Virus record (IMG/VR): IMGVR_UViG_3300045988_005223
Coordinates: 1 to 5,829 of that record
Length of the DNA stretch: 5,829 bases
Strand: one strand, 5' to 3'
From: a virus
Both the position numbers and the translations under genes were made by a program. Below, in pieces: positions 2,166 through 5,829 of this stretch (its first letter is position 1; the number at the start of each line of letters is the position of its first letter). Below the pieces are notes generated by a model. The model saw only the letters and a list, made by a program, of their open reading frames with translations, did no database searches and was not told where the DNA came from.

Positions 2166-2202
2166 TATACGCGCGCGCGCACGAAGCGTGCACACACGCG
2201 CA
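2166..2202. repeat. Two alternating purine-pyrimidine tracts (Z-DNA-prone), containing a CGCGCGCGCGC core and a (CA)n run.
   Basis: TATACGCGCGCGCGCACG (2166-2183, 18 nt of strict R/Y alternation), then AA, then GCGTGCACACACGCGCA (2186-2202, 17 nt). Confidence 0.8.
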
Positions 2203-2242
2203 AAGAGACAATAATCCAAAAAATAGAGAATGTGGAAAACTT

Positions 2243-2411
2243 GAGTTTTCAACACTTTCAACAGGTTTTCAACAACAAGTTGCACAAAGAAATCCGTCAA
2301 AATGACGAACATTCAACAATTCAACAAGTTTTCAACAAAGTTTTCAACAGGCAAAAAGGCAATAAATAAACGTAGAAACGTTAAAAAAACGAGTTTTCAA
2401 CACTTTCAACA
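2243..2411 (+). repeat. Iteron array of nine same-orientation TTCAACA cores in three clusters. Five are the full 10-mer GTTTTCAACA.
   Basis: Cores start at 2248, 2257, 2268, then 2312, 2320, 2331, 2343, then 2396, 2405. GAGTTTTCAACACTTTCAACA at 2243-2263 is repeated exactly at 2391-2411. Spacing within clusters is 8-12 bp. No inverted copy occurs in the block. Confidence 0.85.
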
Positions 2412-2413
2412 CC

Positions 2414-2428
2414 ACTACTACTACTACT
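2414..2428. repeat. (ACT)5 trinucleotide microsatellite.
   Basis: ACTACTACTACTACT lies at 2414-2428 and is non-coding. It sits immediately after the last iteron pair. Confidence 0.9.
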
Positions 2429-2464
2429 ACAACAAGTTAATATATAAAGAAAGCGAGGTGTCAA

Positions 2465-2505: not shown

Positions 2506-3495
2506 ATGCCATGTACAAAACCATTAGTATTTCAAATGGAAACGAAAAAACCGCAACTATGGGGAAGTCTGGAAAACCTATCAAAACAAGGACTGCAAGC
2601 GAACATCATGGACGGAGTAAAAAAAGGAAAATTCGCACTATTGCCATGCGGTAAGTGCGAGTATTGCCGCAAACAGATGGCTGACCAATGGGCAACCAGA
2701 ATCGAGCTGGAGGCTAAAGAATGGGACGATGTGATTTTTCTAACACTAACGTATGACGATGAACATATTCCATACGGCGAGATTCTCAAAGGCTACCAAA
2801 GTATCCAAAGTCAAACAGTAAGCAAACGAGACGTGCAACTATTCTTAAAACGGCTACGGAAAGCGTACAAGAAACCAATTAAATACTTTCTAGCAGCCGA
2901 ATACGGCGACAGAACAAAAAGGCCACACTATCACGCAATAGTATTTGGGCTTAAACCACCAGATGCACAATGGTACAAAAACCAAAAGGGAAACAGCTAT
3001 TTTAAAAGCGAGTGGTTACAAAAAATCTGGGGCAAAGGCATGATTGACTTTTCACCAGCACAACCAGGAAGCTTTGCATACGTGGCACAATACGTGAACA
3101 AAAAAGCCATTGGTGCAGAAGAAAGCGTAAAATACTGGATGCAAGGCAGAGAACCAGAATTTAGAATCATGTCAAAAGGTATTGGCGAAAAGTATCTGAA
3201 CGAACACAAAGATGAAATCTTGAAAACAGATAAAATCGTATGCGCAGGAGGACGCGAGAAAAGGCCTCCACGCTATTTTGATAAGATTCTAGATAAGGAT
3301 ACCAGCCAAGACACGGAAAGCTATTTTAAAGCACATTCTGACGAGCTAAGAGAGGTTAGAGCCAGACGCAGACGCAATGCAGTACAAAGTTTGGTCAATC
3401 TCGAACAGAGCACAAGCGTGGATTATGAAACCTATCTTAACATCCAAAAAGAAAAAGACAAGCTAAAGCAAAAGTGGCGTGAACCGAAAACATGA
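2506..3495 (+). CDS. VP4: Replication initiation protein VP4 (phiX174 gpA-like HUH rolling-circle endonuclease).
   Basis: Motif I is FLTLTY. Motif II (HUH) is HYHAIVF, with H-Y-H at 2926-2934. Motif III is YVAQYVNKK at 3079-3105, with two catalytic-type Tyr spaced Y-x3-Y. The N-terminus reads MPCTKP followed by CGKCEYC. The start is taken as ATG 2506. An in-frame GTG at 2491 is the alternative used by the ORF track. Confidence 0.92.
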   Translation: MPCTKPLVFQMETKKPQLWGSLENLSKQGLQANIMDGVKKGKFALLPCGKCEYCRKQMADQWATRIELEAKEWDDVIFLTLTYDDEHIPYGEILKGYQSIQSQTVSKRDVQLFLKRLRKAYKKPIKYFLAAEYGDRTKRPHYHAIVFGLKPPDAQWYKNQKGNSYFKSEWLQKIWGKGMIDFSPAQPGSFAYVAQYVNKKAIGAEESVKYWMQGREPEFRIMSKGIGEKYLNEHKDEILKTDKIVCAGGREKRPPRYFDKILDKDTSQDTESYFKAHSDELREVRARRRRNAVQSLVNLEQSTSVDYETYLNIQKEKDKLKQKWREPKT

Positions 3496-3628
3496 CGCGC
3501 ACAGCGCTAAAAAGGAAGATTTTATTAAGCCGAGTTCCGCTTGCGCTACACACGGCAGGGCGCTAAAGCGCCATTCAAAACAAAGGAGCAAAGGCTGGTT
3601 ACAAAATTATTACAAAGTGCAAAAAGCA

Positions 3629-3657
3629 TTGAAAAACCTATTGACATATGATAAAAT
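3629..3657 (+). promoter_or_regulatory. Sigma70/SigA-type promoter with an extended -10 element.
   Basis: TTGAAA (3629-3634), a 17-nt spacer, and TAAAAT (3652-3657) preceded by TGa (3649-3651). It lies in the 194-nt spacer after rep and upstream of the 50-aa ORF and the peptidase. Confidence 0.5.
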
Positions 3658-3855: not shown

Positions 3856-4248
3856 ATGATTGAAAGTTATATTATAGAAACAGATGGAAACGCAAATCTT
3901 GGAAGACACTTCAAGGTAAAAGAATTCGCCTGCAAAGACGGAAGTCCAGTAGTGTTTGTAGACAGCTACCTATACAACATCCTGGATATCTTAAGAAAAA
4001 AGATAGAAAAACCAATCATAATCACCAGCGGATACCGTACACCAAGCTGGAACGCAAAATGCGGGGGAGCAAAATACAGCTACCACATGCGCGGTATGGC
4101 AGCAGATATCCGGGTAGATGGGATGAGCCCAAAAGAACTTGCCAACAAACTGAATGAAATCGTCCCGGATGAATGCGGCATTATCGTATACAAAAGCTGG
4201 GTACACTTTGATGTGAGACATAAAAAATACAGAAAGGGGATGAAGTAA
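3856..4248 (+). CDS. Zinc D-Ala-D-Ala carboxypeptidase-fold peptidase (M15 family, Peptidase_M15_3/VanY-like). Putative endolysin.
   Basis: SGYRTPSWNAKCGGAKYSYHMRGMAADI carries the H-x6-D zinc motif (His 4084-4086, Asp 4105-4107). The third ligand context is WVHFDV (His 4204-4206). AAGGAG at 3841-3846 lies 9 nt before ATG 3856. The ORF-track start at 3805 has no SD and overlaps the 50-aa ORF. Confidence 0.85.
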   Translation: MIESYIIETDGNANLGRHFKVKEFACKDGSPVVFVDSYLYNILDILRKKIEKPIIITSGYRTPSWNAKCGGAKYSYHMRGMAADIRVDGMSPKELANKLNEIVPDECGIIVYKSWVHFDVRHKKYRKGMK

Positions 4249-4520: not shown

Positions 4521-4775
4521 ATGAAACTGAAATTCTACTCATTCCACGATGCATTGACCAACGGCTATTCTCAGCCGTTTCTGCAAAACAACAGGGCACA
4601 AGCAGTCCGAACGGCACGATGGAAAGCAAACGAAAGCAAGCCAAGCGAAATCGAAGATATCAGCCTAGTTGAACTGGGCGAGTTTGACACGGAGACGGGA
4701 TACATGAGCGAGGCAATGCCCGAGCACATCGCACGGCTCATCGACCTGAAGGAGACGGCCAATGTTAAATCCTGA
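4521..4775 (+). CDS. Small non-structural protein, VP5-like (gokushovirus-type, thought to act in ssDNA synthesis or packaging).
   Basis: This is an 84-aa ORF with AAAGGAG at 4508-4514, 6 nt upstream. The pattern MKLKFYSFHD...GYSQPF...AQAVRTA...EDISLVELGEFDTETG resembles VP5 proteins as I remember them. No search was done. Confidence 0.5.
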   Translation: MKLKFYSFHDALTNGYSQPFLQNNRAQAVRTARWKANESKPSEIEDISLVELGEFDTETGYMSEAMPEHIARLIDLKETANVKS

Positions 4776-5181
4776 AGTAATGGTACGCTACTACGGTATG
4801 CCAACCGAAAAAATGGTAAACAATCCGGGCAGCAAAACCGCACCAACATGGAAAGCAATCAAACGAACGAACGGCACTACCGACTACATCGAGCAGCCGG
4901 ATGAGAACACATACGAGAAAATCCAGCGAGCGGGAGAGGGCTACGACCTTGCAAGCGCGATTGCACGACTGGAAGCGGGAGACACCAGCATCAAAGCAAA
5001 GAGTGTAGTATACACCGAGGGCACTGACCTCGAAAATCTGCCGAAAGACATCATGACGATGCACGAAAAAGTAGAAGCCTCAGCTGAGGCTATGAAGCAG
5101 CTGAAACAGGTGCAGCAAACCGAACAGCCGAAGCCGGAAGAAAAAAAGGAAGAGGTGAAGGAAAACGAACAGAAACAGTGA
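4762..5181 (+). CDS. Putative internal scaffolding protein (VP3-like).
   Basis: This is a 139-aa ORF with GAAGGAG at 4748-4754, 7 nt upstream. It overlaps the previous gene by 14 nt and lies directly before VP1. It has an acidic body and a K/E-rich tail (QPKPEEKKEEVKENEQKQ). The call rests on position and composition only. Confidence 0.4.
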   Translation: MLNPEVMVRYYGMPTEKMVNNPGSKTAPTWKAIKRTNGTTDYIEQPDENTYEKIQRAGEGYDLASAIARLEAGDTSIKAKSVVYTEGTDLENLPKDIMTMHEKVEASAEAMKQLKQVQQTEQPKPEEKKEEVKENEQKQ

Positions 5182-5206: not shown

Positions 5207-5829
5207 ATGCAACGACCGAGAAGCAAATTTGACAGAAGTCATCAGCTCTTGACGACCATCAACGAGGGTGATTTAGTACCTATCTACTGCGATGAGGTAC
5301 TTCCGGGCGATACCGCACGAGTACGGCTAAACGGACTTATCCGTATGAGTACGCCTATCTATCCTATCATGGATAACTGCTATATGGACACTTATTTCTT
5401 CTTTGTGCCGTGCCGTCTGCTTTGGGAGCACTGGGAGAACATGTTCGGCGAGAACGACACCAATTACTGGGCAGAAAAAACCGAATACAGCACACCGACA
5501 AGCATCATCGGCACAAAAATTGGTATCAAAAACGGAAGCATCGGAGATTACTTTGGACTGCCTACGCAGGTAGACAAAGAAATCAAAGTAAACGCGCTAC
5601 CGGCACGTGCATACGCGATGATTTACAACGAGTGGTTTCGAGACGAAAACACTGAAGCACCGTTAATGCTGGGATACAAAAAAACCGATGATGGTGGAGT
5701 AGCTCAGAGCGGAGAAACGGACATCAAAAAATACGCAAACCAACCGGACCAAACAACCAACACAAACGAAGCTACACTATACGGAATGAAGCCGGCAAAG
5801 GCCGGCAAGTTCCACGACTACTTTACGAG
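5207..5829 (+). CDS. VP1: Major capsid protein VP1, 5' part. The frame is open through the window end and continues at base 56 (bases 5775-5829 duplicate 1-55).
   Basis: From ATG 5207 the translation is MQRPRSKFDRSHQLLTTINEGDLVPIYCDEVLPGDTARVRLNGLIRMSTPIYPIMDNCYMDTYFFFVPCRLLWEHWENMFGEN..., followed later by GDYFGLPT...NALPARAYAMIYNEWFRDEN. These are hallmark Microviridae F/VP1 motifs. I translated by hand to 5829 and found no stop. The ORF track omits this ORF because it has no stop in the window. Confidence 0.93.
   Translation, partial: MQRPRSKFDRSHQLLTTINEGDLVPIYCDEVLPGDTARVRLNGLIRMSTPIYPIMDNCYMDTYFFFVPCRLLWEHWENMFGENDTNYWAEKTEYSTPTSIIGTKIGIKNGSIGDYFGLPTQVDKEIKVNALPARAYAMIYNEWFRDENTEAPLMLGYKKTDDGGVAQSGETDIKKYANQPDQTTNTNEATLYGMKPAKAGKFHDYFT
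5775..5829. repeat. Terminal direct overlap, copy 2 (identical to 1..55).
   Basis: Exact 55/55 identity with the window start. Confidence 0.97.

Follow-up and report, generated by a model that had tools for sequence, protein, structure and literature searches.

A repeat module in a gokushovirus genome that resembles the dnaA–dnaN side of a clostridial chromosomal origin

The stretch of DNA analysed here, hereafter the window (5829 bases; IMG/VR record IMGVR_UViG_3300045988_005223), represents the circular genome of a gut gokushovirus (~5774 bp), with bases 1–55 repeated at 5775–5829. The 512-nt block at 1994–2505, between VP2 and the replication gene rep (Rep/VP4), houses an array of short repeats. 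These belong to an oriC-like module of ~225 bp on the + strand (2229–2453), which we describe as DnaA-box arrays, tandem DnaA boxes, DnaA-trios and an AT-rich unwinding element. With a probability of roughly 60%, we read this module as a miniature mimic of the dnaA–dnaN side of the chromosomal origin of Ruminococcus/Oscillospiraceae (Clostridia), which would bind the DnaA protein of the host. Judged from sequence, these bacteria are the probable hosts of the phage.

A preliminary description of this DNA had reported nine same-strand copies of TTCAACA near rep, beyond chance expectation, and five copies of GTTTTCAACA; both counts hold. TTCAACA occurs 11 times in the window, always on the + strand, and nine of these copies lie at 2248–2411 (164 bp). 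Shuffled windows contain a mean of 1.05 copies and none of 200 shuffles reaches 11. GTTTTCAACA is present exactly five times, with starts at 2245, 2265, 2328, 2340 and 2393, and GTTTTCCACA at 2231–2240 is an inverted one-mismatch copy of it. The nine TTCAACA copies form the three clusters with 8–12 bp spacing that had been described, the start-to-start distances being 9 and 11, then 8, 11 and 12, and finally 9 bp. Likewise, the 21-bp unit said to be duplicated 148 bp apart, GAGTTTTCAACACTTTCAACA, is found in exact copies at 2243–2263 and 2391–2411, within a 35-nt pair that is 83% identical. Two elements had been overlooked: the only perfect TTWTNCACA of the window, on the – strand at the left edge (2231–2239), and an (ACT)5.7 repeat at 2414–2430, which Tandem Repeats Finder places directly after the last two boxes and which is followed by TTAATATATAAAGAAAG. 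The other two TTCAACA copies of the window fall within VP2, in an 18-nt imperfect tandem repeat at 1306–1349 (CAACACAAATTAGCACAC, 1.9 copies).

The module holds ten DnaA-box-like 9-mers, head-to-tail or inverted, with 8–12 bp spacing. At its left end lies an inverted box of canonical type (TTTTCCACA on the – strand, TGTGGAAAA on the + strand; 2231–2239), the perfect TTWTNCACA, which recurs in ~23 of 123 related modules, essentially those of the window's clade. Box array A (2246–2274) consists of TTTTCAACA (2246–2254), CTTTCAACA (2255–2263) and a second TTTTCAACA (2266–2274); its columns are at least 80–90% conserved over the 123 genomes and its spacings of 9 and 11 bp are those of host origins. 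It is followed by a conserved, phage-specific spacer at 2279–2307, made of GTTGCACAA and the palindrome CGTCAAAATGACG (2295–2307), with columns conserved at 60–88%; no counterpart of either was seen in host dnaA–dnaN spacers. Box array B (2310–2349; CATTCAACA at 2310–2318, AATTCAACA at 2318–2326, TTTTCAACA at 2329–2337 and again at 2341–2349) is conserved at ~90%. The variable A-rich spacer behind it (2350–2393), with ACGT..AACGTT, is the least conserved part of the module, its columns reaching 30–70%.

Two tandem boxes, TTTTCAACA (2394–2402) and CTTTCAACA (2403–2411), stand next to the trios. In most other phages the second of them is the canonical TTTTCCACA followed by GCCC, and the host counterparts (L210, L134, L145) read TTCAACA-nn-TTCAACA. 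The short GC spacer CCA (2412–2414), which is GCCC or CCCC in other phages and hosts, leads to five putative DnaA-trios at 2415–2429, again from Tandem Repeats Finder: CTA five times in the 5′ to 3′ direction, with five 3′-GAT-5′ on the complement. In a set of 42 modules chosen without regard to trios, conservation of the trio columns is 90% or higher, and phages selected on the array show variants such as CTACTACTACGACTAC and similar. An invariant phage-specific heptamer, CAACAAG (2430–2436; at least 90% conserved), comes next and is absent after the host trios in dnaA–dnaN spacers. The module closes with the AT-rich candidate duplex-unwinding element TTAATATATAAAGAAAG (2437–2453), its right edge being set by the empty site in a relative (L123) described below. 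By nearest-neighbour free energy, the least stable duplex of the whole genome lies here, at 2434–2453 for a 20-bp window and at 2414–2453 for a 40-bp window. Overall, boxes and trios are conserved at 90% or more and the spacers at 30–70%. A dif/Xer-type integration site was also sought in the AT-rich part, by eye against dif sequences, and gave no convincing match.

This arrangement closely follows the basal unwinding system of bacterial origins, which comprises one or two DnaA boxes, a GC-rich spacer of ~4 bp, at least three DnaA-trios and an AT-rich region (Pelliciari et al. 2021, PMC8287927). DnaA-trios are 3′-GAT-5′, hence 5′-CTA-3′ on the box strand, and the published search accepted a box with up to two mismatches, a second box no more than 3 bp off, at least three trios and a box-to-trio spacer of 0–16 bp with a peak at 10–13 bp (PMC8287927). 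The window runs TTTTCAACA CTTTCAACA CCA CTACTACTACTACTA. Its TTTTCAACA at 2394–2402 has two mismatches to TTATCCACA and one to TTWTNCACA, CTTTCAACA abuts it, and the five CTA triplets begin after a 12-bp spacer, counted from the upstream box and including CCA. The least stable 20-bp and 40-bp windows lie directly at and beyond the trios. This box-trio pattern arises in no shuffle. Its orientation from box to trio is that of B. subtilis in the published supplementary table, which lists, as complement, AATAGGTGT TTAGGTGT TCGG GATGATAATGAAGATGAT; for R. albus 7, the oriC boxes in the same table are the complement of TTTTCAACA GGT TTTTCAACA (PMC8287927). In addition, CACCACTACTACTACTACTAC in the window resembles the trio of C. 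difficile oriC2, CACCTACTACTATTACTACTATGA (PMC7561715). As the module is located between VP2 and VP4 of a microvirus genome and not in a chromosomal origin, we call it a mimic of the basal unwinding system, not a member.

When 185,579 species genomes were scanned once for three TTCAACA boxes in a row, at least 120 stretches came up, against an estimated ~0.3 expected. About half of these arrays (58 by record titles), on contigs of up to 420 kb, belong to Oscillospiraceae, Ruminococcus or unclassified Clostridia. Contamination by microvirus DNA was excluded, since tblastn with VP1, VP2 and VP4 finds nothing at these loci. Ten of the loci have dnaA and dnaN (both genes identified by Pfam in L181 and by tblastn in the others) with the array filling the spacer between them; each spacer holds 4–29 boxes, which are 20–60 times as dense as in the remainder of the locus. 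These spacers use TTTTCAACA far more than TTTTCCACA, and box spacings peak at 9 and 11–12 bp in phages and hosts alike. The arrays end in agttTTCAACAgtTTCAACAccccCTACTACTACTACTAttttataaatag (L210), TTCAACAttTTCAACAccaCTACTAATACTACTAaaattaat (L134) and cttTTCCACAgcccCTACTACTACTACTAaaataaatatac (L181; also given as cttTTCCACAgcccCTACTACTACTACTAaaataaatat), nearly the same as the box-trio end of the window, agttTTCAACActTTCAACAccaCTACTACTACTACTACaacaagttaatatataaag, and the phage consensus, TTTTCAACTTTTCCACAGCCCCTACTACTACTACTAC. The phage units come in two subtypes, TTCAACAnnTTCAACAcca and TTCCACAgccc, and the likeness of the three spacer ends to the phage unit means that both have host counterparts.

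A recent wholesale capture of the module from a sampled host genome was not seen, the longest blastn match extending over 138 bp at 74% (Mesoaciditoga). The longest matches as a group come from Mesoaciditoga/Athalassotoga metagenome-assembled genomes of the Thermotogota (L153, L185, L195, L230; 74–78% over 92–138 bp) that carry TTCAACA arrays. Two of these (L153, L195) have runs of CTA/TTA trios in a regular-expression check, and searches with Ruminococcus proteins detected neither dnaA nor dnaN in the 8-kb pieces of the four loci.

The preliminary description had raised, as a second possibility, that the repeats are degenerate DnaA boxes which recruit or titrate DnaA. The comparison with host origins supports this idea and extends it: TTTTCAACA is of the box type of host origins, and the array ends in a complete unit of boxes, spacer, trios and AT-rich stretch. 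Among the 123 modules, TTTTCAACA occurs 346 times, CTTTCAACA 303, TTTTCCACA 103 and TTATCCACA 18 times; box position 6 is mostly A (88%), with C in the other 12%, and TTTTCCACA or TTATCCACA replaces TTTTCAACA at homologous slots. The host DnaA proteins offer a plausible reason for A instead of C at this position. Five residues of DnaA, P, D, H, T and H, make base-specific contacts (PMC7561715). Whereas B. subtilis DnaA (8btg) has P-x9-D-H-T-x3-H, the host proteins read A-x9-D-H-S-x3-Y, so that three of the five contact positions are changed, to A, S and Y (or T), in Ruminococcus/Oscillospiraceae (L181, L133, L145, L210 and others). This suggests a lineage-specific variant of the DnaA box, TTTTCAACA, in these bacteria.

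Departure from the DnaA consensus at a conserved position could also mean that the boxes serve another host DNA-binding protein acting at origins, for example of Spo0A type (box TTCGACA), by which phage development would be tied to the state of the host as in phi29. TTCAACA is one mismatch away from the 0A box, TTCGNCA, sporulation is widespread in Oscillospiraceae, and the oriC of B. subtilis has 0A boxes that overlap with its DnaA boxes. We nevertheless consider such a protein an improbable target. The mismatch to the 0A box likewise falls at a conserved position, and canonical DnaA boxes, TTTTCCACA and TTATCCACA, take the place of TTTTCAACA at homologous slots. Moreover, TTCAACA is the sole box type beside the trios, at the correct spacing for unwinding, in several host origins (L134, L145, L210, L227), and the host DnaA is changed at base-contact residues.

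The module is widespread. A sensitive BLAST search of the 512-nt gap against GenBank phages matched window positions 2247–2451 in 37 gokushovirus records at 70–83% identity; these phages come from the faeces of humans, pigs, mink, raccoons and monkeys and have hardly any other DNA in common with the window, and none of the inspected GenBank records annotates the module. A 22-nt core pattern is found in at least 119 IMG/VR contigs, all of microvirus size except one of 10.9 kb (L058), and the module is present in more than 190 IMG/VR microvirus genomes. All 51 of 51 relatives picked by VP4 alone have it. Orienting 123 genomes by tblastn with VP1, VP2 and VP4 showed that the module points against the genes in 97 of them and along with the genes in 26. 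Members of the window's clade (VP4 identity of 80% or more) have it upstream of VP4, ~94 nt from the start; clades with VP4 32–39% identical have it downstream of the VP4 stop. One relative, L123, has a VP4 95% identical to that of the window and a cleanly empty upstream site, and carries the version of the other clade, inverted, 56 nt past the VP4 stop. As a rule a genome has a single module, which may occupy either of the two sites and point either way. The region after the VP4 stop of the window (3496–3590; CGCGCACAGCGCTAAAAAGGAA...GGGCGCTAAAGCGCCATT) contains a conserved small hairpin, GGCGC-TAAA-GCGCC, and is homologous to the flank at the box end of the module in other clades; it is thus the 'empty' alternative downstream site of the window. 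Alternating purine-pyrimidine GC tracts, CGCGCGCGCACG...GTGCACACACGCGC (window 2166–2203), accompany the module in all clades, on the box side in the window and on the AT-rich side in other clades; such tracts are prone to form Z-DNA.

Structural variants are few. L345 has a second copy of array A, and L348 and L282 have a second copy of the box-trio segment. Two modules lie on one 10.7-kb contig (L341), which probably represents a dimer or an assembly chimera. In whole-genome megablast against GenBank phages, the M15 peptidase gene and the module account for most matches to otherwise unrelated gokushoviruses. The two tend to be found in the same genomes. When sister genomes (L378–L404) were compared with module-bearing genomes, both module and peptidase were present in 153, the module only in 51, neither in 26 and the peptidase only in 8, counts that are not phylogenetically independent. 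Outside the microviruses, a 39-kb contig of tailed-phage size (L300, IMGVR_UViG_3300045988_134603) has ~11 TTCAACA boxes at 1870–2000 that end in TTCAACAgtttcaaccgcccCTACTACTAtaaatataat, next to open reading frames (ORFs) resembling tail genes by eye. Origin mimicry may therefore extend beyond microviruses.

This distribution bears on the first proposal of the preliminary description, that the repeats are iterons bound by Rep, as in circular Rep-encoding single-stranded (CRESS) DNA viruses and iteron plasmids, where they would place the HUH endonuclease VP4 at the plus-strand origin. The direct repeats, their roughly helical spacing and the closeness to rep and to an AT-rich stretch are all in keeping with iterons, as are the phage-specific conserved pieces inside the module, and CAACAAG with the AT-rich stretch is faintly like the phiX174 origin CAACTTG/ATATTAATAAC. 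Yet motif and layout are identical across VP4 proteins only 32–39% identical, with no co-variation over the compared range of 32% to 100%, and L123 pairs a VP4 close to that of the window with the module of another clade at another site. Position and orientation relative to rep vary, and the skew of the coding strand does not depend on module direction (AT skew +0.33 to +0.37; +0.5 at four-fold sites). The same arrays also occur in bacterial dnaA–dnaN spacers with no microvirus genes nearby, and in relatives that lack the module no site of CAACAAG type recurs at a conserved position. We therefore regard Rep binding as very improbable. The relatives bear out the conservation of the repeats in many gokushoviruses, though neither a fixed VP2–rep site nor co-variation with Rep. 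A phiX-like nick site for Rep at CAACAAG/TTAATAT is not supported either, the skew being the same in both orientations and 26 module-less relatives having no such site at a conserved place. A general gokushovirus feature is ruled out as well, as 26 of 27 sister-group genomes have neither the module nor another dense array.

Orientation likewise speaks to a role on single-stranded DNA (ssDNA). The module could be a single-strand origin, in which hairpins present duplex DnaA boxes as at the A site of the ABC primosome, or an entry site for RNA polymerase or primase on the complementary strand; ABC-primosome priming had been suggested in the preliminary description. TGTGGAAAAC-TTGA-GTTTTCAACA (2231–2254) can indeed form a hairpin of 9 of 10 bp that contains a box. 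The inverted box that it needs is confined to the clade of the window, however, and the ssDNA fold of the module is unremarkable (z = –0.87; matched or bettered by 33 of 200 shuffles). Both orientations occur with unchanged strand composition, which a strand-specific signal should not tolerate, and the neighbouring GC hairpins at 1994–2225 (z = –6.4) are better candidates. A single-strand origin within the module is, accordingly, a most doubtful alternative.

We can all but dismiss a small protein-coding gene or a non-coding RNA gene. Two ORFs, 2064–2369 (101 aa) and 2302–2478 (58 aa), do cross the array, but neither matches a PHROG family, and any given frame, whichever the strand, stays open through the element (260 nt) in at most 2% of 193 homologous modules. 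An Rfam search of the module gave nothing close to a gathering score, and a consensus promoter scan found no promoter within it. Conservation tracks the 9-mers and the triplet run, not codons. The earlier view that the block is non-coding and conserved at the DNA level is thus upheld.

In the mechanism that we propose, host DnaA would occupy the ten boxes on the double-stranded replicative form. ATP-DnaA would extend from the trio-proximal tandem boxes onto the trio strand, the trios and the AT-rich region would melt, and the opened region would admit the helicase-loading machinery of the host, by which replication of the replicative form would be started or assisted. The phage would then have a host-initiator-driven origin alongside Rep-driven rolling-circle replication, possibly with plasmid-like persistence. 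Because such a module would act on duplex DNA through a host protein, it could work on either side of rep and in either orientation; the ordinary ssDNA fold and the tolerance of inversion fit best with this duplex mode of action. A bolder version, which we put forward tentatively, as possible more than probable, is that a portable, orientation-free unwinding module of the host makes the replicative form a DnaA-fired minichromosome, governed by the initiation control of the host, independent of Rep and perhaps plasmid-like, and that the box-trio match is a determinant of host range and a signature from which the host of uncultured microviruses could be read.

The same DnaA-box evidence would be expected if the module were a DnaA decoy or sensor, which soaks up DnaA, and ATP-DnaA above all, on the copies of the replicative form without starting replication. 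Initiation in the host would be shut off or delayed and resources freed, or phage expression would be coupled to the DnaA level of the host. Extra copies of DnaA-box regions, incA, incB and incC in B. subtilis and datA in E. coli, perturb initiation by titration and provide a precedent. Ten boxes per 5.8-kb genome, the occasional partial duplications that add boxes (L345, L348, L282) and the dispensability of the module for the family as a whole, as expected of an accessory takeover device, are consistent with such a role. A sink needs boxes alone, however, whereas conservation is just as strong for the trios, for their distance from the boxes and for the AT-rich stretch, at the weakest duplex of the genome, and there is normally one module per genome with no expanding array. 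This is why we favour a role in opening and helicase loading, and think a decoy unlikely, although it is the main alternative.

Several points weigh against the origin mimic. TTTTCAACA departs from TTWTNCACA at C6, a position that is otherwise conserved. In Microviridae, Rep drives rolling-circle replication, and we know of no DnaA-dependent step in them. In origins of the B. subtilis type, autonomous replication requires box clusters that flank dnaA on either side, and the module is one-sided and only ~225 bp long. CAACAAG, GTTGCACAA and CGTCA..TGACG are conserved in the phages and left unexplained by the model. Between the module and the 120 bacterial loci, blastn finds stretches of 30–46 bp at 83–97%, a likeness of motif and architecture with no long collinear match. 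The probable assignment of the host is based on the mimicry, the Shine-Dalgarno sites and the sigma-70-type promoter described below. Finally, sister gokushoviruses (VP1 ~55% identical) have no module in 26 of 27 genomes and no dense array in its place, so that it would be an adaptation of particular lineages and is not needed for gokushovirus replication as such.

All genes of the genome lie on the + strand. VP1 spans the circle junction and ends at 1094, VP2 occupies 1133–1993, Rep/VP4 starts at 2491 or 2506 and ends at 3495, an M15 peptidase gene ends at 4248, and VP5 (4521–4775) and VP3 (4762–5181) follow. The only strong sigma-70-type promoter match of the genome is at 3629–3657 (TTGAAA, 17 nt, TAAAAT, with a TG extension), which would put VP4 last in the transcription unit, after two terminator-like hairpins. 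Clear Shine-Dalgarno sites, read from the sequence, precede several genes and, together with the promoter, point to a Firmicutes-like host.

Two hairpin regions flank the module. At 1994–2225 the ssDNA fold is very strong (–53.8 kcal/mol; z value as given above), with hairpins at 2072–2104 and ~2113–2131 that have a perfect 14-bp GC stem and a second GC stem of 7 bp. These hairpins, whose sequence differs in close relatives (L345, L123), are a candidate complementary-strand origin or VP2 terminator. Just before rep, a hairpin at 2464–2498 (arms ACCGGCACAAG / CTTGTGCCGGT) shows three kinds of compensatory double changes in relatives (GGCGCAAG/CTTGCGCC, GGCCCAAG/CTTGGGCC and ACTGGC/GCCAGT). Its loop, ATAGACAAG(G/T)AAG, is almost invariant, a few relatives having single substitutions in the last four bases, and the hairpin is kept in L123 despite the module being elsewhere. 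As AAGGAAG lies in the loop and the GTG at 2491 in the 3′ arm, this hairpin may control translation of Rep.

It is well established that plasmids and phages can have DnaA boxes beside their initiator sites, and chromosomes are known to contain the box-trio unit. To our knowledge, no complete, host-matched unit has been described that travels as a cassette in an ssDNA phage with rolling-circle replication, and the present one would be the first DnaA-trio unit known to us outside a bacterial chromosome. The preliminary description had likewise known of no such regulatory module in microviruses, and none came up in our literature searches: we found no paper linking Microviridae or gokushoviruses with DnaA boxes, and a literature search for TTTTCAACA gave unrelated primer matches only. 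Microviridae are among the most abundant gut phages and are thought to need only their own Rep and host elongation factors. If our reading is true, the smallest DNA phages would have a step that depends on the host initiator, or a device for host shutoff. A non-coding signal would assign hosts, Ruminococcus/Oscillospiraceae, to hundreds of uncultured gokushoviruses. The module also points to a variant DnaA box, TTTTCAACA, with changed base-contact residues of DnaA in a bacterial group, and to a 225-bp regulatory cassette that moves and flips between phage lineages.

Several known systems share parts of this architecture. The origins of pSC101, F, P1 (oriR), RK2 and R6K combine an initiator of their own with DnaA boxes of the host, and DnaA helps to open the origin or to load the helicase; as in the gokushovirus, a mobile replicon thus carries host DnaA boxes. 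Whereas these theta replicons have one to few canonical boxes beside Rep iterons, the module combines a complete array of host type with trios, in a rolling-circle ssDNA phage, and Rep iterons are not detectable. DnaA-titrating loci, such as E. coli datA, the box clusters of B. subtilis and the inc regions on plasmids, are similar in being clusters of boxes outside an origin that can sequester the initiator. They lack a trio and unwinding unit, which in the phage module is as conserved as the boxes. The phi29 Spo0A boxes are also phage-borne arrays of sites for a chromosomal regulator of the host that acts at oriC. They differ in protein and motif, and they repress promoters and origins and contain no copied unwinding module.

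The phiX174-type origin, a 30-bp recognition and nick site of gpA inside gene A, belongs to the same virus family, is served by a Rep/gpA-like HUH initiator and has a faintly similar CAAC..G with an AT-rich stretch. The gokushovirus module differs in being intergenic and repeat-rich, in its host-type motifs and variable orientation, and neither the skew nor the module-less relatives give evidence of nicking by Rep at this place. Rep iterons of CRESS-DNA viruses and of rolling-circle or iteron plasmids have direct repeats, helical spacing and closeness to rep in common with the module, which in contrast does not co-vary with Rep, has no fixed geometry to rep or to a nick-site hairpin, and shares its motif with bacterial chromosomes.

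Comparing the module with the basal unwinding system of oriC (incC boxes 6 and 7 with trios in B. subtilis, oriC2 of C. difficile and the predicted oriC of R. albus) reveals the same tandem boxes leading toward the trios, a short GC spacer, at least three trios (five in the module) 10–13 bp from the upstream box and an AT-rich region beyond, and bacterial oriC has the same upstream head-to-tail box arrays with 9–12 bp spacing. Whereas the bacterial systems are chromosomal, the phage module is one-sided, ~225 bp long and located in a 5.8-kb ssDNA phage, not beside dnaA. It has the additional conserved CAACAAG, GTTGCACAA and CGTCA..TGACG, and it moves between two intergenic sites and flips its orientation.

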